A DNA stretch of 64,000 nt from an uncultured Pseudomonadota bacterium (GTDB lineage: Bacteria > Myxococcota_A > Polyangia > Fen-1088), in assembly GCA_963847705.1 (NCBI GenBank), contig CAWKBC010000021.1, forward strand, positions 192,001 through 256,000, written 5' to 3'. Under the pieces are notes generated by a model, which saw only the letters and a list, made by a program, of their open reading frames with translations, was not told the origin of the DNA and ran no database searches. Shown one piece after another: positions 3,007 to 14,834 of this stretch (positions are counted from its first letter, which is position 1; each line of letters opens with the position of its first letter). The position numbers and the translations under genes are program-made.

Positions 3007-3981
3007 GTGTCCGCGCGCCGGCCCCTGCCTCCTTACGATCCCCAGCTGGCCCTCCTCGCGAAATCCGCGCCCGAGGGTGACGGGTGGCTCCACGAGGTCA
3101 AGTTCGACGGCTTCCGGATCGGAGCCGCCGTCGAGCACGGCCGGGCGACGCTGCTTTCGCGGCGCGCGAAGGACTGGACGGCGGAGTTTGCCTCCGTCGC
3201 CGCGGCCGCGGCGCGGCTGGGGGCGAAGAGCGTTTTACTGGACGGTGAGGTTGCCGCCGTCGGGAGTGACGGCCGCACCTCGATGGGCGGGATGCACGAG
3301 GGCTCCAACGGATCCACGATCGCGTACTTCGTCTTCGACTTGATTCACCTCGACGGCGAAGACCTGACCGGGCGGCCCATCGAAGAGCGAAAGGCGCGCC
3401 TCCGGGACCTGCTGGGCCGCGCACCGCCCGTGCCGCTTCGTTATGTCGACCACGTCGTCGGCGGCGGCCCCGCGTTCTTCGAGGAGGCCTGCCTCCACCG
3501 CCTCGAAGGAATCATCTCCAAGGCGGCCGGGTCGACCTATCGCCCCGGCTCCCGGAACGCGACCTGGCAGAAGGTGAAGTGCGTCCTCCGGCAGGAGTTC
3601 GTGATCGGCGGCTACGAGCATTCGACGGTCGGAACCCTGGGCGCGCTCTGGCTCGGCTACTACCTCCCGGACGGCAGCCTGGAGTTCGCGGGGAAGGTCG
3701 GCACCGGTTTTCAGCGCGAGTCGGCCGGTTTGCTGAAGGCGTTCAAGAAGCTGGAACGCGACACCCCCCCGTTCGGTCCGGGGCTACCGACGGGCTTCCG
3801 GGTGCGGGACGCGGTGTGGCTCGAGCCGACGATGGTCTGCGAGGTCGAGTTCATGGAGTGGACCGGGCACGGCCACATCAGGCATCCGTCGTATCAGGGG
3901 CTGCGGCCGGACAAGGAGCCGGGCCAGGTGGTGCGGGAGGTTGCGGGGAAGGTGCCGGTGTTGCCGAAGGGGTTGCGGTAA
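3007..3981 (+). CDS. ligD: ATP-dependent DNA ligase, stand-alone LigD ligase domain (NHEJ-type)
   Basis: EVKFDGFR adenylation motif, LDGEV, FDL, EGIISK, WQKVK, QEFVIGG, GKVGTGF, IRHPSYQGLRPDK. Confidence 0.85.
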   Translation: MSARRPLPPYDPQLALLAKSAPEGDGWLHEVKFDGFRIGAAVEHGRATLLSRRAKDWTAEFASVAAAAARLGAKSVLLDGEVAAVGSDGRTSMGGMHEGSNGSTIAYFVFDLIHLDGEDLTGRPIEERKARLRDLLGRAPPVPLRYVDHVVGGGPAFFEEACLHRLEGIISKAAGSTYRPGSRNATWQKVKCVLRQEFVIGGYEHSTVGTLGALWLGYYLPDGSLEFAGKVGTGFQRESAGLLKAFKKLERDTPPFGPGLPTGFRVRDAVWLEPTMVCEVEFMEWTGHGHIRHPSYQGLRPDKEPGQVVREVAGKVPVLPKGLR

Positions 3982-4487: not shown

Positions 4488-4718
4488 ATGACGATCCTGC
4501 GCGGGCACGTCGAAGGCGGCCGAGTCGTCCTCGACGAGGAGTGCGATTTGCCGGAAGGGGCGCAGGTCGAGATCGCGGTCCTGAGCGAAGAGGATGAGAT
4601 GACACCGGAAGAGCGGGCGGAGCTCTTGGCCTCGATCGATCGCGGCCTCGACCAGGCGGCGCGGGGCGAAGGAATACTCGCCGAAGAAGTCCTGCGGCAT
4701 CTGCGCTCGCTCGGATGA
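4488..4718 (+). CDS. Small antitoxin-like protein (DUF104-like N-terminus, addiction-module-like C-terminus)
   Basis: LRGHVEGGRVVLDEECDLPEGAQVEI...IDRGLDQAARGEGILAEEVL. Confidence 0.6.
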   Translation: MTILRGHVEGGRVVLDEECDLPEGAQVEIAVLSEEDEMTPEERAELLASIDRGLDQAARGEGILAEEVLRHLRSLG

Positions 4719-4918
4719 GATCCCGGCGGCGGCTGGCAGCCGACAACGGCGCGCGCCGCGAATCCGCCTTCAGGACGCGCCGTAGCCCGAGCCAGATCTA
4801 GCCGTCCTGATCTCAGGCAACCCGGCACGCGGTCGGTACGAAAACCGCAGGACTTCACTGCGACGACCGAGTCCGTAGACAGGTGGCCAACGATGTGTAA
4901 TATTTTTGGTACGGGATC

Positions 4919-5305
4919 TTGGTGACCCGTCGAACCCAGCCCGTCCTGGGGGTGCGGTTCTACCGGACGCCGACAGGAGCTCGTCCAGTGCGGGACTGGC
5001 TCTTGTCCCTATCGAGAGAGGTACGACGAGAAATTGGCGCCGACATCGGGAGAGCTCAATGGCAATGGCCGGTGGGAAAACCCCTGGTCGACGGGTTCGG
5101 CGGCGGCCTCTACGAAGTCCGGACGTCGCACGAGGGTGAGCAGTACCGCGTGCTCGTCTACGTCGATGGCGACGCGTTGGTCCTGGTCCACGGCGAGTCA
5201 ACCCGGGGGACGATGGTGCTCGTGCATGGGATTCACAAGAAGACGCAGAGGACGCCGGCCGCGGCGATCGCGCTCGCGCGGAAGCGCATGAAGGAACGGA
5301 CATGA
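4919..5305 (+). CDS. RelE/ParE-superfamily toxin (Gp49/DUF891-like)
   Basis: FYRTPTGARPVRDWL, WPVGKPLV, GLYEVR, HGIHKKTQRTP; ATGA overlap with the downstream HTH gene. Confidence 0.85.
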   Translation: MVTRRTQPVLGVRFYRTPTGARPVRDWLLSLSREVRREIGADIGRAQWQWPVGKPLVDGFGGGLYEVRTSHEGEQYRVLVYVDGDALVLVHGESTRGTMVLVHGIHKKTQRTPAAAIALARKRMKERT

Positions 5306-5628
5306 AGAGGCAAACCAAGGACGAGCTCGCAGAGATGTTCGAGGAGCTCGGCGAGCTCGAGGAGGTTCGAGCGCTCACGCGGAAGAAGGTCCTCGCCGAC
5401 GGGCTCCGGAAGGCGATGAAGTCGCAGAAGGTCACGCCTGCCGAGATGGCCCGGCGCATGGGGACGAGCCGGCCGACCGTGTACCGGTTGCTCGACCCCG
5501 CGGAGCGTGGGGCGACGCTGGACACCCTGGAACGGGCGTCACTCGCGCTGGGCCTCGATCTCCAGATCAGGCTGGTGCCGGCGGGTAGGCCGAAGGGACG
5601 CCGACAGTCCAGCCGCCGCGCCGCGTAG
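5302..5628 (+). CDS. HTH antitoxin, cognate of the upstream toxin
   Basis: AEMARRMGTSRPTVYRLLDP...TLDTLERASLALG; coupled to the toxin. Confidence 0.85.
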   Translation: MKRQTKDELAEMFEELGELEEVRALTRKKVLADGLRKAMKSQKVTPAEMARRMGTSRPTVYRLLDPAERGATLDTLERASLALGLDLQIRLVPAGRPKGRRQSSRRAA

Positions 5629-5632
5629 GCGA

Positions 5633-5661
5633 TTGCCCCCGCCTTGCGCCGCGGCTATGCT
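5633..5661 (+). promoter_or_regulatory. Sigma70-like promoter for the uORF/release-factor locus
   Basis: TTGCCC (5633-5638)-N17-TATGCT (5656-5661); +1 predicted near 5668. Confidence 0.6.
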
Positions 5662-5667
5662 CGAACT

Positions 5668-5721
5668 GTGAAGTCAGCGCTCCGGATCGGCCTGTTCGCC
5701 TCCTCGCAGCCGCGCTATTAG
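5668..5721 (+). CDS. Putative leaderless leader peptide MKSALRIGLFASSQPRY*
   Basis: GTG at the predicted TSS; TAG lies in a GCCGCG..CGCGGC hairpin; contains CTCCTCGC (5700-5707), complementary to the downstream SD region GCGAGGAG (5776-5783). Confidence 0.5.
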   Translation: MKSALRIGLFASSQPRY

Positions 5722-5789
5722 CCGCGGCGACGTCGGCGATCCGTCTGTCGAGCGCCAGAGTGAGAGTCGTTTCACGCGAGGAGTGCCCC

Positions 5790-6484
5790 ATGTCCGTCAC
5801 GTCCGTTCCGTCCGTCATCGTCGAGATCCGCGCCGCCGAAGGGGGCGAGGACGCCAAGTCCCTGGTCGACGAGCAGCTGCGCATCTACGCCCGCCGCGCG
5901 CTCCACCACGGTCTTTGACCTGGAGGTCGTCGAGGCGCGGCGGGGCCTCTGCGTCCTGCGCGTGAGCGACCGAGGAGGGGCGCGCGCCGAGCCCCTGTTC
6001 CGCGACGAGGCCGGCGGCCACCGCTGGCAGCGCGTCCCGCGCAACGAGAAGCGCGACCGCGTCCACACCAGCACCATCACCGTCGCCGTGCTCCCCGAGC
6101 CAACGGAGGTGGAGGTGCGCGTCGCGGAGCGGGATCTGGAGTGGTCGACCTGCTACGGCACCGGCCCCGGCGGCCAGAAGCGCAACAAGACCGAGTCGAC
6201 GGTGCTGCTGACGCATCGGCCGTCGGGGTTGCAGGTGCGGTGCGAGACGTCGCGCTCGCAGCAGCGGAACCGGGTCGTGGCGCTGGGGTTGTTGCGGGCG
6301 CGGCTGTGGGCGCTGGAGGCGGCGCGGGTGGGGGAGGCGCGCGCGGCGGAGCGGCGGGGGCAGGTGGGGTCGGGGATGCCGGGGGACAAGCGGCGGACGG
6401 TTCGGGCGCAGGACGGGACGGTGGTGGACCACGTCGCGGGGAGGCGGTGGGAGCTAAGGGGGGTATTTGAGGGGGGCTTGGTAA
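5790..6484 (+). CDS. Short class-I peptide chain release factor homologue (RF1-like, no domain 1) with a putative +1 frameshift at CTT-TGA-C (5913-5919)
   Basis: SD GAGGAG + ATG 5790: VEIRAAEGGEDAK...; +1 frame: EAGGHRWQRVPRNEKRDRVHTSTITVAVLP, GPGGQKRNKTESTV, CETSRSQQRNR, GDKRRT. End is TAA 6482-6484 if the G6 run is G5, otherwise 6624. Confidence 0.85.
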
Positions 6485-6553
6485 ATGGGGCGCACTCAGC
6501 TAGAGACGTCGAGGACAGCGAGGGTCCGTTCGCAGTACTATCAGCCCGCCGTT

Positions 6554-7495
6554 GTGAAGGTCTACGTCGCCGTCACCGACAAGGACTGGTTTCAGTTTCT
6601 TGGCCGCCTCAAGGAGCGGCGTGAGGCGGCGGGGGACACGTTAGACGAAGTGAATTTCTGGCAACCCGGGGGAAAGCAGCTCTTCAAGGCGCAGCAGCCT
6701 GGGGATCTCTTCCTCTTCAAACTGCACAGCCCCGACAACTTCATCGTCGGTGGAGGGTACTTCGGGCACGCGTCGCTGCTGCCTGCGCCTCTCGCGTGGG
6801 AGGCCTTCGGGCAGATGAACGGCGCCGTCTCTTTCGATGAGATGCAGATGCGGATCGCGAAGTACCGCCGGATCTCGGACGTCCGCGAGCACTTCACGGT
6901 CGGGTGCATCCTGCTGCAGAGCCCATTCTTCCTGGAACCGTCCCGTTGGATTCCCGCGCCGACGGACTTTCACCTCAATATCGTGCAGGGGAAGGGCTAT
7001 GACGGTTCCTCGTCGGAAATGCAGCGCGTGGTAGCTGCGCTCGGAGCGCCGGGCTTGACCGGGCTGCCGATCGGATTGGCCGAGGTCGATGGACCTATGT
7101 TCGGCGATCCGACGCTGGTTCGTCAGCGCCTAGGCCAAGGAACATTCCGCGTGCTGGTCACGGACACGTACGAACGGCGATGCGCGATCACGCGAGAACG
7201 CACGCTCCCGACGCTCGAAGCTGCTCACATCCTGCCCGTCGGCGAGGGGGGGAGGCACCGCGTGGACAACGGCCTTCTGTTTCGGTCGGATGTGCACCGG
7301 CTCTTCGACGCTGGTTACGTGACCGTCACACCCGACTACCGCTTTCGCGTCAGCAGCAGAATCAAGAAGGAGTTCGAAAATGGGAAGGAGTACTACGCGA
7401 TTGACGACCGGCCGCTGTGGCTTCCTGCCAATCCAGCCCTGCAGCCGAACAAGGAGTTTCTCTCCTGGCACTCGGAGGCGCGATTCGTGGGATAG
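6554..7495 (+). CDS. HNH endonuclease with N-terminal putative modified-DNA-binding domain (putative restriction endonuclease)
   Basis: VAVTDKDW, EVNFWQP, FLFKLHSP; RLGQGTFR, CAIT, LEAAHI, NGLLFRSDVHRLFDAG. Confidence 0.85.
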   Translation: MKVYVAVTDKDWFQFLGRLKERREAAGDTLDEVNFWQPGGKQLFKAQQPGDLFLFKLHSPDNFIVGGGYFGHASLLPAPLAWEAFGQMNGAVSFDEMQMRIAKYRRISDVREHFTVGCILLQSPFFLEPSRWIPAPTDFHLNIVQGKGYDGSSSEMQRVVAALGAPGLTGLPIGLAEVDGPMFGDPTLVRQRLGQGTFRVLVTDTYERRCAITRERTLPTLEAAHILPVGEGGRHRVDNGLLFRSDVHRLFDAGYVTVTPDYRFRVSSRIKKEFENGKEYYAIDDRPLWLPANPALQPNKEFLSWHSEARFVG

Positions 7496-7504
7496 GGTCG
7501 GCCC

Positions 7505-7849
7505 ATGACACCCCTCGACGAGCTTCGCGGAGAGCTTCGAGCTTTCGTAACGGCACGCGACTGGGAACAGTTCCACGACCCGAAAAATCTGGCCATGCTG
7601 GTGGCGTCAGAAGCCGGGGAGCTGGTGGCGGAGTACCGATGGATCCGAAGCGACGAGGCGGACGCTCACTCTCGCGAGCCGGCAACGCGCGAACGGATTG
7701 CAGCGGAGGTAGCCGATGTGGGGATCGGACTGCTGCTTCTATGCGAAAGGATCGGGTTGGATCTGGTGGAGGTGATGCGGGCGAAGGTGGCTAAGAATGC
7801 CGAGCGGTATCCGGCGGAGGCGGCGCGGGGACGGGCGGAGCGACCATAG
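7505..7849 (+). CDS. MazG-like nucleotide pyrophosphohydrolase (dCTPase-like)
   Basis: RDWEQFHDPKNLAMLVASEAGEL...EVADV...KNAERYP. Confidence 0.9.
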   Translation: MTPLDELRGELRAFVTARDWEQFHDPKNLAMLVASEAGELVAEYRWIRSDEADAHSREPATRERIAAEVADVGIGLLLLCERIGLDLVEVMRAKVAKNAERYPAEAARGRAERP

Positions 7850-7868
7850 GGTGGAGTGACGAGAGTCT

Positions 7869-8105
7869 TCAGGTTTCTGAAGCAATCAGATCAAGGAACT
7901 CGAGCACAGTTAGACCGCATGCCAGGGCAGCACCCTCGAGGAATCCGCCTGCGTACGCGGCCGACGCTGGCAAGGTTTCCAGGTTCTCGACGACGCGTGT
8001 GCCGAAAAGAGCATCGGCATCTACCCCGGTGACCGTGGTCAGAGTGTTGAGCGCTTCTTCGACGGCTTCACGGAGTTCCATGGGAACGGGAGGTGTGGTG
8101 TCCAT
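7869..8105 (-). CDS. Hypothetical 78-aa acidic helical protein
   Basis: ATG 8105; fills the gap between the MazG-like and helicase genes. Confidence 0.45.
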   Translation of the reverse strand: MDTTPPVPMELREAVEEALNTLTTVTGVDADALFGTRVVENLETLPASAAYAGGFLEGAALACGLTVLEFLDLIASET

Positions 8106-8147
8106 TCGCGGGTCTCCCTTGGTTCGAGGGCAGGGCTGCGATCTCTG

Positions 8148-11100
8148 TTGGACGATAGCCTGAGCGGCATCGTGAGCAATCTCGAAATCGGCCGCGAGCG
8201 GACCGTCGTGACGTGCGATGCTCCGCTCGTGGCACGCCCGCTTCCGGAGGGAGTCTACGAGCATCCAATCACCCGGGAACTCGAGGCGGCGTTGCAGGCG
8301 CTCGATGCTGATCGACAACAGCTTGGCGCGATCGGAGACGCGGAGAGTCCCGCCGTCGTCGCTCGACATGTGGCACAGGAACTTGCCCGCGTACTTGACG
8401 GCACCGATATCAAGGACCGTGCGGAGGTCGCCCGTGCGCTAGGTGATCGACTGCTCGCGGAGATTGCGACGTTCGCCACGGCTCACCACCAGGACGAGGT
8501 GCCGGTCCTCGACCAACGACTCGCACCGCCGCCGCGTCGACTGCTCTCGATTCACAAAGGCCGACCGCCGGCTCGTCCAGAGACACCATTTTCGACATCC
8601 ACCCTGCTCACCCGGAATCGTGCTGAGCCGGCCCTTGGACGCGAGCTTGCATGCGAGCTAGGCACGGCCAATCGTGTAGATGCCATCGTCGCCTTCGTTA
8701 CGGTGGGCGGAGTTCGACTGCTCGGCGAGGCTCTTGAAGAATTCAGCGCTCGGGGCGTCGGACTTCGGTTTCGCTTGCTGACGACGGTCTTCAGCGGGAC
8801 CACAGAGATCGAGGCGATGGACCGCCTTGCACGGCTGCCCGGGGTACAAATCAAGATTTCCTACGACGTACGTCGGACACGACTTCACGCCAAGGCATGG
8901 CTCTTTCATCGCGACAGCGGCCTGTCGACGGCGTATGTCGGTTCGGCCAACCTTACGTCGACGGCGCTCGGCGGTGGCCAAGAGTGGATGGTCAAGGTCT
9001 GCGCGGCCGACCTCCCTCAGGTGATCGAGAAATTCGAAGGCACCTTCGACAGCCTCTGGGAGGATCCGGAGTTCGAGGCATACGATCCCGGTCAGGAAGA
9101 AGGTCGCACGCGCCTGCGATCCGCCCTGGGCGCCGAACGTTCGGGCTCGGACGTGCCGACTTCGCTGGTCTCGCTTCGGCCGCTCCCATTTCAGGAGGAG
9201 ATCCTCGATCGGCTAAGGGTCGAACGCGAGCTTCACGGGCGCCGCCGAAACCTTATCGTTGCCGCCACCGGCACTGGCAAGACTGTCATCGCCGCATGTG
9301 ACTACGCGCGCATCGCTGCCGCATTAGGCACGCGTCCCCGACTGCTCTTTCTCGCCCATCGGAAGGAGATCCTTCTGCAAGCGCGCGACACGTTCCGTCA
9401 TGCAATGCAGGACGGTGCCTTTGGTGAACTTCTGGTCGACGGCGACCGCCCTGAGGCTTACCAACACGTCTTCGCTACAATCCAGAGCTTCGCCGCGGCG
9501 GGGCTGATCGAGCGCCTCGGGCCCGCCCACTTTCACCACGTCGTCGTCGACGAGTGTCACCATCTCCCAGCGCCGTCGTATCAAAGCGTCGTTCTGCGCC
9601 TGCAACCCGACATCTTGGTCGGCCTCACTGCCACACCCGAACGCAGCGACGGGAAGTCACTGCTGCCCGACTTCGACGGTCATGTCGCGCACGAGCTTCG
9701 CCTGTGGCAAGCGCTAGACCAGCAACTTCTGGTTCCGTTCGAGTACTTCGGGATCTCAGACACCACGGATCTGCGAAGCGTCCGTTGGACACGCACCGGT
9801 TACGACCAGGCAGCGCTCTCCGACCTCTACACGGGCAACGATGCCCGCGCCGCGCTGGTGCTGGCACAACTGGCCCGCCGCGTCGGCGACCTGCGCATGA
9901 TCCGCGCACTCGGATTCTGCGTCAGTGTCGAGCACGCTAAGTTCATGGCCACGCAGTTTTGCATTGCCGGCACTCCTGCCCTGGCCGTCCACGGTGATTC
10001 GCCTGCCGACGAGCGCGCGCGCGCCGCCGCCCGTTTGCGTGAGCGCGAGGTGAACATCGTCTTTACGTGCGACCTTTACAATGAGGGCGTCGACCTCCCA
10101 TTCGTGGATTCGCTCCTGTTGTTGCGGCCCACTCAGAGCGCGACGCTATTCCTTCAACAGCTCGGCCGCGGTCTGCGCCATCACGAGCGTAAGGAGTCCT
10201 GTCTAGTTCTCGATTTTATTGGCCAACAGCATGAGCGTTTCCGCTTCGATGGTCTTTTCAGCGCCATGACAGGTGTGCCTCGTGCCCGGCTGACTAAAGC
10301 GGTCGCGGACGGCTTCCCCTATCTCCCGAGCGGCTGCACGGTCCAACTTGACCGCGTCGCTCGCGATGAGGTCCTTCGCTCGCTCCGACAGACGGTCGCC
10401 ACCGCCCGTACGATGGTGCCTGAACTCAAAGAGCTCGCCGCCGAGAAATCGGGCGCGTTGTCATTGCGCGAGTACCTCGCCGCGACAGGTCGCGAACTCG
10501 AAGATATCTATGCGGCCGGCGGCTGGACGACATTGAAGCGCCGGGCGCGCTTGGCCGACGGCGATGATGCCGAGACGGAGGATCTCAGTCGTCGACTTGG
10601 ATGGTTACTACACATCGACGAGCCTGCGCGGCTGCAAGCCCAAGGGTTGGCCATCTCCCTACCTGACGGCGGCCAGGTCGACGGGGCACTCTCAGCAATC
10701 GATAAGAGGCGGATCGAGATGCTCGACGCTCAGCTTTGGCCTCGTGGTGAGGTCCGATCCGCCGAGGAGACAGTACATGCCCTGACGGAGCGTCCAGGCA
10801 TTGCGGCGGAGGTGGGTGAATTACAGGAGGTCCTAAACGAGCGGATAGTCGTTGCGAGCGCGATCTATCCGGTACCGGAGTGGCCGCTCTGCCTGCATCA
10901 CCACTACTCGCGGCGGGAGATCGTGGCCGCAGTAGGGTTTGTTGGACAGGGGGAGAAGAAGAAGAGTCTTCAAGGAGGCATCCTCACGCTGAAGGACCGT
11001 CCGTGCGAGTTGCTTTTCGTTACGCTCGACAAGACCGGTGCTGGCTTCTCGCCCACCACCCGCTATCGAGACTACGCGATCAGCCGAGACCTGTTTCACT

Positions 11101-11342
11101 GGGAGACGCAAGGGGCGGCGAGCGTATCGCGCCCGAGTGGGCGTCGGTATATAGAGAGCCCAGGCAACGGTATGACGTTCCAGCTATTCGTCCGGCTGGG
11201 GCCAGACGACGCGTTCGCGTACCTGGGCCCTGCGCTTTATGTGCGACACGAGGGCGACCGACCGATCGCGATCACTTGGAAGTTGGAGGCCCCGATGCCC
11301 GGGGGACTCTTTGAGAAATACGCGACTTTGGCAACGTCGTAG
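8148..11342 (+). CDS. PLD nuclease-SF2 helicase-DUF3427 protein (SauUSI-like type IV restriction enzyme)
   Basis: LHAKAW...GSANL (PLD), ATGTGKT, DECHH, TATPER, EGVDLP, QQLGRGLR; C-terminal YRDYAISRDLFHWETQ. Confidence 0.85.
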   Translation: MDDSLSGIVSNLEIGRERTVVTCDAPLVARPLPEGVYEHPITRELEAALQALDADRQQLGAIGDAESPAVVARHVAQELARVLDGTDIKDRAEVARALGDRLLAEIATFATAHHQDEVPVLDQRLAPPPRRLLSIHKGRPPARPETPFSTSTLLTRNRAEPALGRELACELGTANRVDAIVAFVTVGGVRLLGEALEEFSARGVGLRFRLLTTVFSGTTEIEAMDRLARLPGVQIKISYDVRRTRLHAKAWLFHRDSGLSTAYVGSANLTSTALGGGQEWMVKVCAADLPQVIEKFEGTFDSLWEDPEFEAYDPGQEEGRTRLRSALGAERSGSDVPTSLVSLRPLPFQEEILDRLRVERELHGRRRNLIVAATGTGKTVIAACDYARIAAALGTRPRLLFLAHRKEILLQARDTFRHAMQDGAFGELLVDGDRPEAYQHVFATIQSFAAAGLIERLGPAHFHHVVVDECHHLPAPSYQSVVLRLQPDILVGLTATPERSDGKSLLPDFDGHVAHELRLWQALDQQLLVPFEYFGISDTTDLRSVRWTRTGYDQAALSDLYTGNDARAALVLAQLARRVGDLRMIRALGFCVSVEHAKFMATQFCIAGTPALAVHGDSPADERARAAARLREREVNIVFTCDLYNEGVDLPFVDSLLLLRPTQSATLFLQQLGRGLRHHERKESCLVLDFIGQQHERFRFDGLFSAMTGVPRARLTKAVADGFPYLPSGCTVQLDRVARDEVLRSLRQTVATARTMVPELKELAAEKSGALSLREYLAATGRELEDIYAAGGWTTLKRRARLADGDDAETEDLSRRLGWLLHIDEPARLQAQGLAISLPDGGQVDGALSAIDKRRIEMLDAQLWPRGEVRSAEETVHALTERPGIAAEVGELQEVLNERIVVASAIYPVPEWPLCLHHHYSRREIVAAVGFVGQGEKKKSLQGGILTLKDRPCELLFVTLDKTGAGFSPTTRYRDYAISRDLFHWETQGAASVSRPSGRRYIESPGNGMTFQLFVRLGPDDAFAYLGPALYVRHEGDRPIAITWKLEAPMPGGLFEKYATLATS

Positions 11343-13835: not shown

Positions 13836-14834
13836 TCAGGCGTAGCGCTTGGCGGCCCGCCGCAGCTCCCCCGCCACCGCCTCCCGCAGCTCCGCCGGCT
13901 CCACCACCCGCGCGTCCCCTCCGAACCCCAGCACCCACCCCACCACCTCCGTCGTCCCCCGCACCTCCATCGTCATCTCCAGCCCCGCCGCCGTCCGCTT
14001 GAACCGTTGCGTGGGGTGCCACAGGACCCGCTCCACGTAGCGCGCCACCTTCGGGTCGAACAGGATCCGCACGCGCGTCACCTCCGACCCGCGGATCAAC
14101 CCGAAGGCCCCCTCGGTCAGCTGCTCGGGGCGGTAGTCGGCCGGGTAGTCGAACGCGTCGCCCCGCAGCCACTCGACCTCCCGGAACGCATCCAGCGCAA
14201 ACGTCCGGAGCGCGCCCGCGTGCCCCTCGCTCCGCCCCACCAGATACAACCCCTTCTTGTAGACCATCAGGGTGTACGGCTCGAGGACGAAGGTCTTCCT
14301 GCCGCCCGAGACGCTCTCGTGGGTGACCCGCAGGCGCTCCTCGCGCAAGAGCGCGGTGACGATGTCGTTCACGTCCTCGATCCGCCCCTCGTAGAGGTGG
14401 CGGGCCTCGTTCACGTCGAAGACCTTGCGATCGAGGTTGCGGGCGGCGGCGAAGTCCTTGCGGCGGAGCTGCGCCTCCAGCTTGCCGAAGAGATCGTCCA
14501 GGTCCTCCTTGAACCCGGTGCCGGCCAGGAAGTCGAACACGCGGCGGGAGAGAAACAGCGCCACCATCTGGGCGGTCGTCAGGGTCACCGTCTGCTGGCG
14601 GGCGCTGGCCATCAGGCGCCAGACCTTGCGCCGCCCCTCGACCTCCTCGTAGAGCGGCTCGCCCGCCATCTGCAGCGCGCGGATGTAGCGGATCGCCGTG
14701 CGGACGCTGACGGCGAACCGCTCGGCGATGTCGTAGACGCTGGCCCCCTCGCCGCTGTTGAGCAGGCCGCGCACCTCGGCGAGGCGGCGGGCGGGGGCGT
14801 AGCGCTCGGCGCGGGGCGGTCGGCGGGCGGGCAT
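13836..14834 (-). CDS. HTH-WYL-WCX transcriptional regulator
   Basis: wHTH IAERFAVSVRTAIRYI; LEPYTL..GLYLVG; WHPTQ; WVLGFGGDARVVEPAELR. Confidence 0.9.
   Translation of the reverse strand: MPARRPPRAERYAPARRLAEVRGLLNSGEGASVYDIAERFAVSVRTAIRYIRALQMAGEPLYEEVEGRRKVWRLMASARQQTVTLTTAQMVALFLSRRVFDFLAGTGFKEDLDDLFGKLEAQLRRKDFAAARNLDRKVFDVNEARHLYEGRIEDVNDIVTALLREERLRVTHESVSGGRKTFVLEPYTLMVYKKGLYLVGRSEGHAGALRTFALDAFREVEWLRGDAFDYPADYRPEQLTEGAFGLIRGSEVTRVRILFDPKVARYVERVLWHPTQRFKRTAAGLEMTMEVRGTTEVVGWVLGFGGDARVVEPAELREAVAGELRRAAKRYA

Follow-up and report, generated by a model that had tools for sequence, protein, structure and literature searches.

In the bacterial gene prfB, which encodes release factor RF2, an early +1 frameshift is made at a CUU-stop-C site placed behind a Shine-Dalgarno (SD)-like element and a 3-nt spacer (PMC12421855, PMC5009743, PMC3711429). 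Among 8,164 prfB motifs the stop is TGA in 98.6%, TAA in 1.4% and TAG in none, and the same survey of 12,000 genomes reports no programmed frameshift in prfA, the gene of RF1 (PMC12421855); its Table S1 gives, per genome, only the status of prfB and the presence of a full prfA. The prfB site lies in domain 1, at codon 26 in E. coli, and a 2016 review knew of no RF2 gene with an early in-frame UGA and a continuing open reading frame (ORF), and of no UAG/RF1 counterpart, in its available text (PMC5009743), while that of PMC3711429 names the prfB cluster only. Here we describe a release-factor gene, with its leader, in a 64,000-nucleotide stretch of contig CAWKBC010000021.1 from an uncultured bacterium (the window, meaning the whole stretch at full length). 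The gene belongs to a family that shares with prfB all the elements named above, and differs from it in being RF1-derived and without domain 1, its shift site not being homologous to that of prfB. UAG stands at 40 of its 181 shift sites as against 0 of the 8,164 prfB motifs (PMC12421855). The family also includes in-frame UGA forms, is accessory and largely phage-borne, and has a leaderless upstream ORF (uORF) in cellular copies, and the window lineage lacks the internal SD 3 nt before CUU. Because the prfB site sits in domain 1, which is missing from the family, the cassette most likely arose separately.

The locus in the window is made up of the following elements.

5633 to 5661, plus strand: sigma-70-type promoter predicted from the sequence, TTGCCC (5633-5638), 17 nt, TATGCT (5656-5661)
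5668 to 5721, plus strand: leaderless uORF of 17 codons, GTG at 5668 to TAG at 5719-5721, then C; seen in the sequence and in relatives
5677 to 5683, plus strand: second complement of the SD region, in the uORF, from folding
5700 to 5707, plus strand: anti-SD-like octamer CTCCTCGC inside the uORF, complement of GCGAGGAG at 5776-5783
5776 to 5792, plus strand: SD (GAGGAG, 5778-5783) and ATG (5790) of the release-factor gene; homologues begin at the equivalent place
5790 to 5918, plus strand: zero-frame part, 42 codons ending at TGA, matching positions 101-134 of the PCRF profile
5913 to 5919, plus strand: +1 shift site CTT TGA C, from the sequence and family comparison
5917 to 6484, plus strand: +1-frame part with recognition loop (6037-6045), GGQ (6169-6177), switch loop and predicted end TAA (6482-6484)
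6458 to 6463, plus strand: G run with one extra G relative to contigs of related strains

The promoter has 8 of 12 consensus matches, which is under the threshold of the promoter scan, and was hence left uncalled by it. The GTG of the uORF stands 6 nt past the -10 box, and transcription probably starts at or near 5668. When aligned to E. coli RF1, the zero-frame part corresponds to the first strand and helix alpha5 of the decoding domain, without domain 1, and the +1 part gives PCRF/RF-1 matches (Pfam RF-1, expect value E 7e-24); relatives end at the same place as the predicted TAA. An Rfam search of 4500-7500 gave no matches. All the sequence features listed in an earlier sequence-only reading of this DNA (promoter, UAG-ended uORF, anti-SD, CTT-TGA-C, GGQ and flanking genes) are present.

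Homologous loci were ranked by likeness to the window and comprised at least 69 genome loci among the matches listed, less 5 that proved to be RF2, the best 80 of 373 phage stretches, the best 80 of at least 525 metagenome stretches, and 3 further family members from a 301-genome sample of the phylum. Of 228 loci examined, the window included, 21 were unscorable by the patterns used and 15 were duplicates, which left 192 non-duplicate loci. A +1 break at a slippery stop is carried by 181 of these, from genomes, metagenomes and phages alike, as CTT-TGA (135), CTT-TAG (40), CTT-TAA (5) or CCT-TGA (1); the remainder have an in-frame TGA (6, one with two), are continuous (4) or of another type (1). 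CTT thus precedes the gate stop in 180 of the 181 shift loci; in a crude ORF set of the source genome, CTT makes up 7.5% of leucine codons and AGG 5.6% of arginine codons. The base after the gate stop is C at 81% of the shift sites. A permissive pattern finds, at 154 of them, a run of purines resembling an SD that ends about 3 nt ahead of CTT, and at 91 the exact CGG AGG stands directly before a 3-nt spacer. The window lineage is among the 27 shift loci without such a stimulator and has CACCAC instead, which should leave it with little basal output. Counted from the EIRAAEGG motif, the gate is 31 codons downstream in 171 shift loci and 41 codons downstream in 6, and both positions occur also as in-frame TGA, in two loci each. 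The reading-frame break is programmed, and a programmed shifty-stop gate on a backup release factor, as the sequence-only reading had proposed, is supported. That reading had taken homologues without the leader and in the form of continuous ORFs as the observation that would speak against it, and the continuous loci number 4 of 192; as the ranking favoured loci resembling the window, the share of continuous forms may be higher among remoter members.

The 6 in-frame TGA loci may reflect reassignment of the genetic code. One of these family members (L056:2833-3515) has two in-frame TGA codons in its N-terminal part and no frameshift. Another, on a Variovorax megaplasmid (L294:7788-8492, NZ_LR594690.1), is split by RefSeq into two genes, one annotated as a hypothetical protein and the other as a 'peptide chain release factor-like protein'. 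A tRNA with the anticodon CTA lies about 260 bases upstream of one TGA-gated copy (L227:2549-2623).

That the break is a sequencing error or the lesion of a pseudogene is scarcely credible. The assembly does contain indels: between the source genome (G000; 6.1 Mb, 85% complete, about 69% guanine plus cytosine, GC) and the genome G398, 9 of 58 compared ORFs change frame, including a 697-aa EF-G-like ORF, the 58 containing shadow ORFs and the error lying possibly in either genome. The window copy moreover differs from all close relatives at three further places, 6041 (PPN to PRN), 6380 (MRG to MPG) and the G run at 6458-6463. Against this, the same break recurs across 181 loci, which refutes error as the origin of CTT-TGA, no indel was seen at 5913-5919 in any of 8 public runs of related strains, and comparison with close relatives gives a ratio of non-synonymous to synonymous substitution rates (dN/dS) of about 0.25-0.3 for the +1 part and of 0 for the zero-frame part. 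Contigs from the runs have the family base at 6041 in 8 of 8 and at 6380 in 6 of 8, the exceptions being X20, which has no cover there, and X4, which has a short unrelated piece only; the extra G is absent in X1, X3 and X7, the three runs with a row at that place. Assembly error is the likelier cause of the three extra lesions, the alternative being that the window copy is decaying, and the copy is probably intact in the living strain. The 230-aa product reconstructed in the sequence-only reading stands as to length, about 230 aa, with the amendment that a second frame change, at the G run, is needed to reach TAA at 6482-6484.

Gate stop identity is evolutionarily labile, changing 34 times on a 297-row FastTree. 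Locus L001 with a TAG gate and L002 with a TGA gate differ at 5 of 180 residues, none of them in the recognition loop, and among the related-strain contigs the gate is TGA in X2, X3 and X7 and TAG in X4 and X19, while X5 and, in part, X1 have A as second base, i.e. TAA or TAG. The state of the recognition loop, PPT or PPN, does not track the identity of the gate stop. As UGA, UAG and UAA are interchangeable at the gate, it probably reports overall termination capacity and not the supply of one factor. The final stop of the gene is TAA in 35 of 85 high-GC loci as against 103 of 970 control genes, kin among the loci not being independent. UGA-C and UAG-C are weak stop contexts, and weak contexts at the gate together with a TAA end fit a gene that is finished efficiently when termination is poor. 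They agree less well with the idea of a fixed dosage limiter, in which the shift would keep scarce a factor that does damage when too abundant, and would react little to stress. Such a limiter would be in keeping with the toxicity of overexpressed RF2 in B. subtilis (PMC12421855), with the expectation that RF3 would not recycle a factor lacking domain 1, and with the steady leak that the SD stimulator of most members should give. A limiter needs no stop codon, yet every gate has one, whether passed by frameshift or by read-through, and the weak stops at gate and uORF stand in contrast to the TAA at the gene end; such a limiter is therefore considered unlikely.

The product, of about 230 aa, lacks domain 1, and its two parts together align to RF1 from the start of domain 2. 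The +1 part scored 150 bits with the NCBIfam prfA profile, 95 with prfB, 57 with prfH (TIGR03072) and 31 with ArfB (NF006718), all under the cut-offs, which are 423 for prfA, 166.65 for TIGR03072 and 100 for NF006718. In a 79-row tree of +1-frame parts, made by a quick search without bootstrap, the family forms one clade (Shimodaira-Hasegawa-like approximate likelihood ratio test, SH-aLRT, 96) of 42 rows and P0173, a protein that the search pattern had labelled RF1; this clade is joined to RF1 at SH-aLRT 96, and PrfH stands apart at 99. The modelled structure of a continuous homologue, P0141, has a predicted local distance difference test score (pLDDT) of 94 and template-modelling (TM) scores of 0.92-0.93 to ribosome-bound RF1; a single-sequence fold of the read-through window protein was unsuccessful (pLDDT 38.7). 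The family thus resembles RF1 in its best profile and structure matches, its position as sister clade, its largely kept Q-R-x-P-x-T loop and its GG tip, and differs from RF1 in lacking domain 1 and the last helix (about 230 versus about 360 aa), in its score of 150 versus 423 bits, and in being recoded, whereas prfA has no programmed frameshift in the genomes surveyed (PMC12421855). Residues Q185, R186, T190 and T198 of E. coli RF1 have been tested as stop-reading residues (PMC3974865). The family has Q and R at the first two, which the search patterns required and which also reach a conservation of 90% or more in an alignment whose sequences came mostly from a profile search, and the position of P188 is kept as well; at T190 T is found in 61%, N in 31% and S in 5%, and at T198 T in 84% and S in 16%. 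In helix alpha5 the Leu at the position where host RF2 has Asp is mostly kept. Motifs specific to the family are HRWQ, PPT/PPN, GGDD-AK and GSGMRGDK, and the recognition loop is PRN in the window and PPN in its relatives. PHROGs and BFVD returned generic release-factor matches only, and databases hold the family mostly as fragments of 170-210 aa or as two separate genes. The nearest named relatives, among the matches listed, are records from Polyangia and other Myxococcota, which makes a myxobacterium the probable host.

Rescue of stalled ribosomes, which the sequence-only reading had suggested for the product, is unsupported, and a codon-independent rescue factor of the PrfH or ArfB kind, or a trap that blocks host ribosomes, is highly improbable. 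ArfB (YaeJ) consists of a GGQ domain and a basic C-terminal tail and has no decoding domain; the family has a decoding domain and, for the most part, RF1's stop-reading residues, falls short of the NF006718 cut-off, and shows no basic C-terminal tail in its alignment. PrfH has an SXY recognition motif, GP at the tip of alpha5 and RtcB as partner (PMC1586002), and the family is like the PrfH/RFH-RtcB system (PMC1586002; bioRxiv 2025.01.09.632186) in its domain-1-less layout, GGQ, similar length and patchy spread, as far as these sources describe it. The phage neighbours of the family, which include PTH2, NADAR and an RNA-ligase-like protein, would also suit rescue. The family differs from PrfH in forming a separate clade, in its profile score far under cut-off, in possessing the recoding gate, and in having GG and PxT-like motifs in place of GP and SXY; GG was required by the scoring pattern but is present in the window itself. 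RtcB was absent among 29 scanned representatives of the 46 neighbour clusters common to at least three loci, and was not found in the 85% complete source genome, the upstream neighbour of the window gene being a helix-turn-helix (HTH) antitoxin.

The leaderless uORF is real and is kept in many cellular copies. A strict rule (promoter TTG..TAnnnT plus leaderless uORF) was satisfied by 22 of 63 genome loci and by 0 of 970 control genes, and a relaxed uORF rule by 40 of 85 high-GC frameshifted loci as against 19 of 970 controls; it was also satisfied by 12 of 90 low-GC loci, a group without a matched control, and by 0 of 9 high-GC phage loci. This part of the sequence-only reading was borne out. 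Identity between the window and its closest relatives starts exactly at the first base of the uORF, 5668. The uORF of the window is kept in L001, L002 and L030, and in L188 as a peptide, 9 of 16 residues being identical to those of the window and 6 of these being encoded by a different codon. Over 12 equal-length pairs (165 codons) the dN/dS of the uORF was 0.60, compared with 1.2 and 1.1 in the shifted frames. Its conserved position and dN/dS point, at the level of sequence comparison, to translation. C follows the uORF stop in 27 of 40 cases versus 35% of controls, and uORF and gate have the same stop in 34 of 39 high-GC loci (Fisher p 1.5e-5). Read-through or frameshifting from the uORF stop into the gene was rejected, there being no fixed frame between them (distance modulo 3 = 13/7/20). 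Two RNA runs contained short contigs of relatives, which do not demonstrate transcription, start site or level. One locus of the phage collection (L137) has a promoter and a TAG-ended uORF, yet a continuous release-factor gene. At L012:1590-1672 a tRNA-like element, called as tRNA-Ser(GCT), lies between uORF and release-factor start, and similar sequence was recognised by eye in the leaders of L016, L024 and L245.

From these comparisons we lean, by a modest measure, towards an RF1-derived factor that is made in full on a +1 slip at CUU-stop and would act as a spare stop-reading factor when termination runs short. A ribosome arriving at the gate would either be released, leaving a 42-residue fragment, or slip by +1 and produce the domain-1-less RF1-type factor. 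As in prfB, the gate would set release against a slip of tRNA-Leu from CUU onto UUU, which the SD 3 nt upstream would favour in most members, and it probably senses overall termination capacity, any stop serving. Full-length product is probably a reader of UAA and UAG that does without RF3, domain 1 being described as dispensable for codon-specific release and needed for RF3 (PMC1586002). The loop would then be closed directly at UAG and UAA gates, which the product would ease itself, and indirectly at UGA gates, through RF2 freed from UAA stops. In the myxobacteria-like cellular copies termination is probably sensed a second time, like for like, by the leaderless uORF, whose stop stands in a weak context and which has a putative coupling to the gene.

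Two groups of results weigh against this account, the first concerning gate and protein. Most gates are UGA gates (135 of 181), to which an RF1-type product gives no direct relief. The 4 continuous loci and, beyond these, several continuous proteins of 220-260 aa from the profile search show that a gate is not obligatory. That HRxQR and GG are invariant follows in part from the way in which the search patterns were written. Asn in place of Thr190 in 31% of the family could alter specificity, and in alpha5 the family has Asp where host RF1 and RF2 have Glu (98%), with Lys or Arg two residues on, changes by which stop specificity may be altered. The strongest rival starts from here: if the product read all three stops, a gate with any stop would give direct negative autoregulation, as UGA does for RF2. 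It would account for the alternation of TGA, TAG and TAA among near-identical proteins such as L001 and L002, with its 34 changes on the tree, for the failure of the gate stop to track the PPT/PPN loop, and for the conserved family-specific changes in the decoding head. The equivalents of Q185, T190 and T198 and the alpha5 Leu are mostly kept, however, and the fold is closest to RF1, and a factor for all three stops is on this evidence judged improbable.

The second group concerns the leader. The match between uORF and gate stops is lost after correction for kinship (5 independent pairs on supported branches, median p 0.25). The modelled gain in opening of the start site in the window was -0.3 kcal/mol with a ribosome at the uORF stop and -0.1 with the whole uORF covered, i.e. 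null. In hiding the start site, native uORFs were hardly better than shuffled ones (p 0.051, with related loci not independent), the folding tests being weak overall, and RNAalifold gave no consensus anti-SD helix in three clades. The same results bear on the specific mechanism of the sequence-only reading, in which a UAG leader sensing RF1 and a UGA shift sensing RF2 form a two-input gate through an anti-SD switch. In its favour, the window and L002 both have TAG in the uORF and TGA at the gate, the anti-SD pairs with 5776-5783 in one minimum free energy fold, and over the family a gain of at least 2 kcal/mol was obtained in 16 of 40 leaders with the ribosome at the stop and in 23 of 40 with the uORF covered. 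That fold has a z of -0.04 and is no stabler than shuffles; when begun one base earlier, or with the ribosome modelled at the uORF stop, the SD pairs with 5677-5683 instead of the anti-SD. The gains in the family show no preference for the stop position, earlier attenuator folding over 21 loci gave mixed results, and L188 keeps the peptide and lacks the anti-SD. TAG/TGA is found in 4 of 39 high-GC loci, and L001 (93% identical protein) and L030 are TAG/TAG with the same or nearly the same uORF, so that logic requiring both RF1 and RF2 would be a local state. A two-input gate is thus very unlikely. The co-conservation that the sequence-only reading proposed as a check is found for the CTT-stop break in almost all loci and for the leader uORF in many, and fails for the stop pair and the anti-SD; overall it had picked the right object and general logic and over-read the stop pair, the anti-SD and the neighbours.

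The source genome has a full prfA of its own, a prfB with SD-CTT-TGA-C, an ArfB-like hit and a transfer-messenger RNA (tmRNA), so that the window gene is an extra factor. RF3 was not above cut-off in this 85% complete genome and was found in G398. ARAGORN places two tmRNA calls that overlap at G000:C21:325834-326634, of which one is permuted and the other standard. In bacteria the family is patchy, being found in 5 of 25 genomes of the same genus and in 4 of 301 genomes of the phylum sample (E below 1e-40), and it is common in large phages. At least three tRNA genes lie nearby in 27 of 63 phage, 10 of 65 metagenome and 3 of 64 genome loci. In L049, L054, L130 and L153 the gene stands inside large tRNA arrays with 26, 21, 32 and 25 tRNA calls, respectively. 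Phage and bacterial rows are interleaved on the tree (14 changes), which fits repeated transfer, in whichever direction.

The flanks of the gene in the window are context and not part of what is conserved.

4919 to 5628, plus strand: upstream neighbours, Gp49-family toxin and HTH antitoxin
6485 to 11342, plus strand: downstream neighbours, HNH nuclease, MazG-like protein and PLD-helicase type IV restriction-like protein

Close relatives likewise adjoin HTH or restriction genes, which suggests a variable island. The toxin-antitoxin pair and restriction-like block to which the sequence-only reading had drawn attention are present in the window and are not common to the family: over 189 loci no family-wide neighbour was found, and the largest of the 46 shared clusters are NADAR (11), RNA-ligase-like (10), methylase (8), HNH (8), ClpS/ClpA (7) and PTH2 (6). 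NADAR, RNA-ligase-like and PTH2 genes recur beside the gene, mostly in phages (for example L176:2441-2929, L170:3021-3623 and L055:5802-6293), and hint at a translation and RNA-repair module. In the window, the HNH ORF has its first ATG directly behind the predicted TAA of the release-factor gene (TAAATG, 6482-6487), an arrangement that may couple their translation. The Gp49 toxin ORF repeats VLVHG twice at 5179-5240, perhaps as a partial duplication; an HTH-plus-WYL-like regulator was recognised by eye at 13836-14834 on the minus strand, and a LigD-type ATP-dependent ligase lies at 3007-3981, near the edge of the island.

A domain-1-less, RF1-derived release factor family with a conserved recoding device is apparently undescribed; a full-text search, with most subscription papers outside its reach, found no description of it. 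Huge phages, recoded phages and tRNA arrays have been noted to contain release factors (PMC7162821, bioRxiv 2021.08.26.457843, PMC5966550), with no truncation or recoding of these factors described in the available portions of the works. PMC6514570 covers RF1, RF2, ArfB and PrfH, and its main text, to the extent available, contains neither 'frameshift' nor 'phage'. The closest viral analogue is the release factor of Mimivirus and Megavirus, a viral class I factor likewise expressed through internal stops by frameshift and read-through; that factor is of the eRF1/aRF1 type and belongs to viruses of eukaryotes, whereas the present family is of the bacterial RF1 type and occurs in phages and bacteria (PMC3521657). 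As leaders, the sensory uORF toiL (PMC12121999) and the termination-arrest peptide PepNL (PMC11890864) are comparable in placing a short translated ORF before a translation-related or stress gene, the uORF of this family differing in being leaderless, in a peptide that differs between clades and in its putative coupling to the gene.

A bolder account, which we regard as doubtful when all its parts are taken jointly, would add the family, carried mostly by phages, to the bacterial release factors as a third class, one able to read all three stops without RF3 and equipped with a reinvented prfB cassette. Autoregulation by a UAG shifty stop and by UGA read-through would then have its first natural case in bacteria. 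Phages and myxobacteria would switch on termination of their own when host factors are trapped or depleted, and bacteria, having captured the gene, would have given it a leaderless leader for sensing stops, tuned to the codon of the gate. Bacterial autoregulation by stop-codon sensing has so far been treated as peculiar to RF2 and UGA. Here an RF1-derived gene has the same cassette at another site, and UGA, UAG, UAA and in-frame UGA forms occur among close kin, which offers a natural test series for what sets the competition between termination, frameshifting and read-through, and for why large phages carry release factors.

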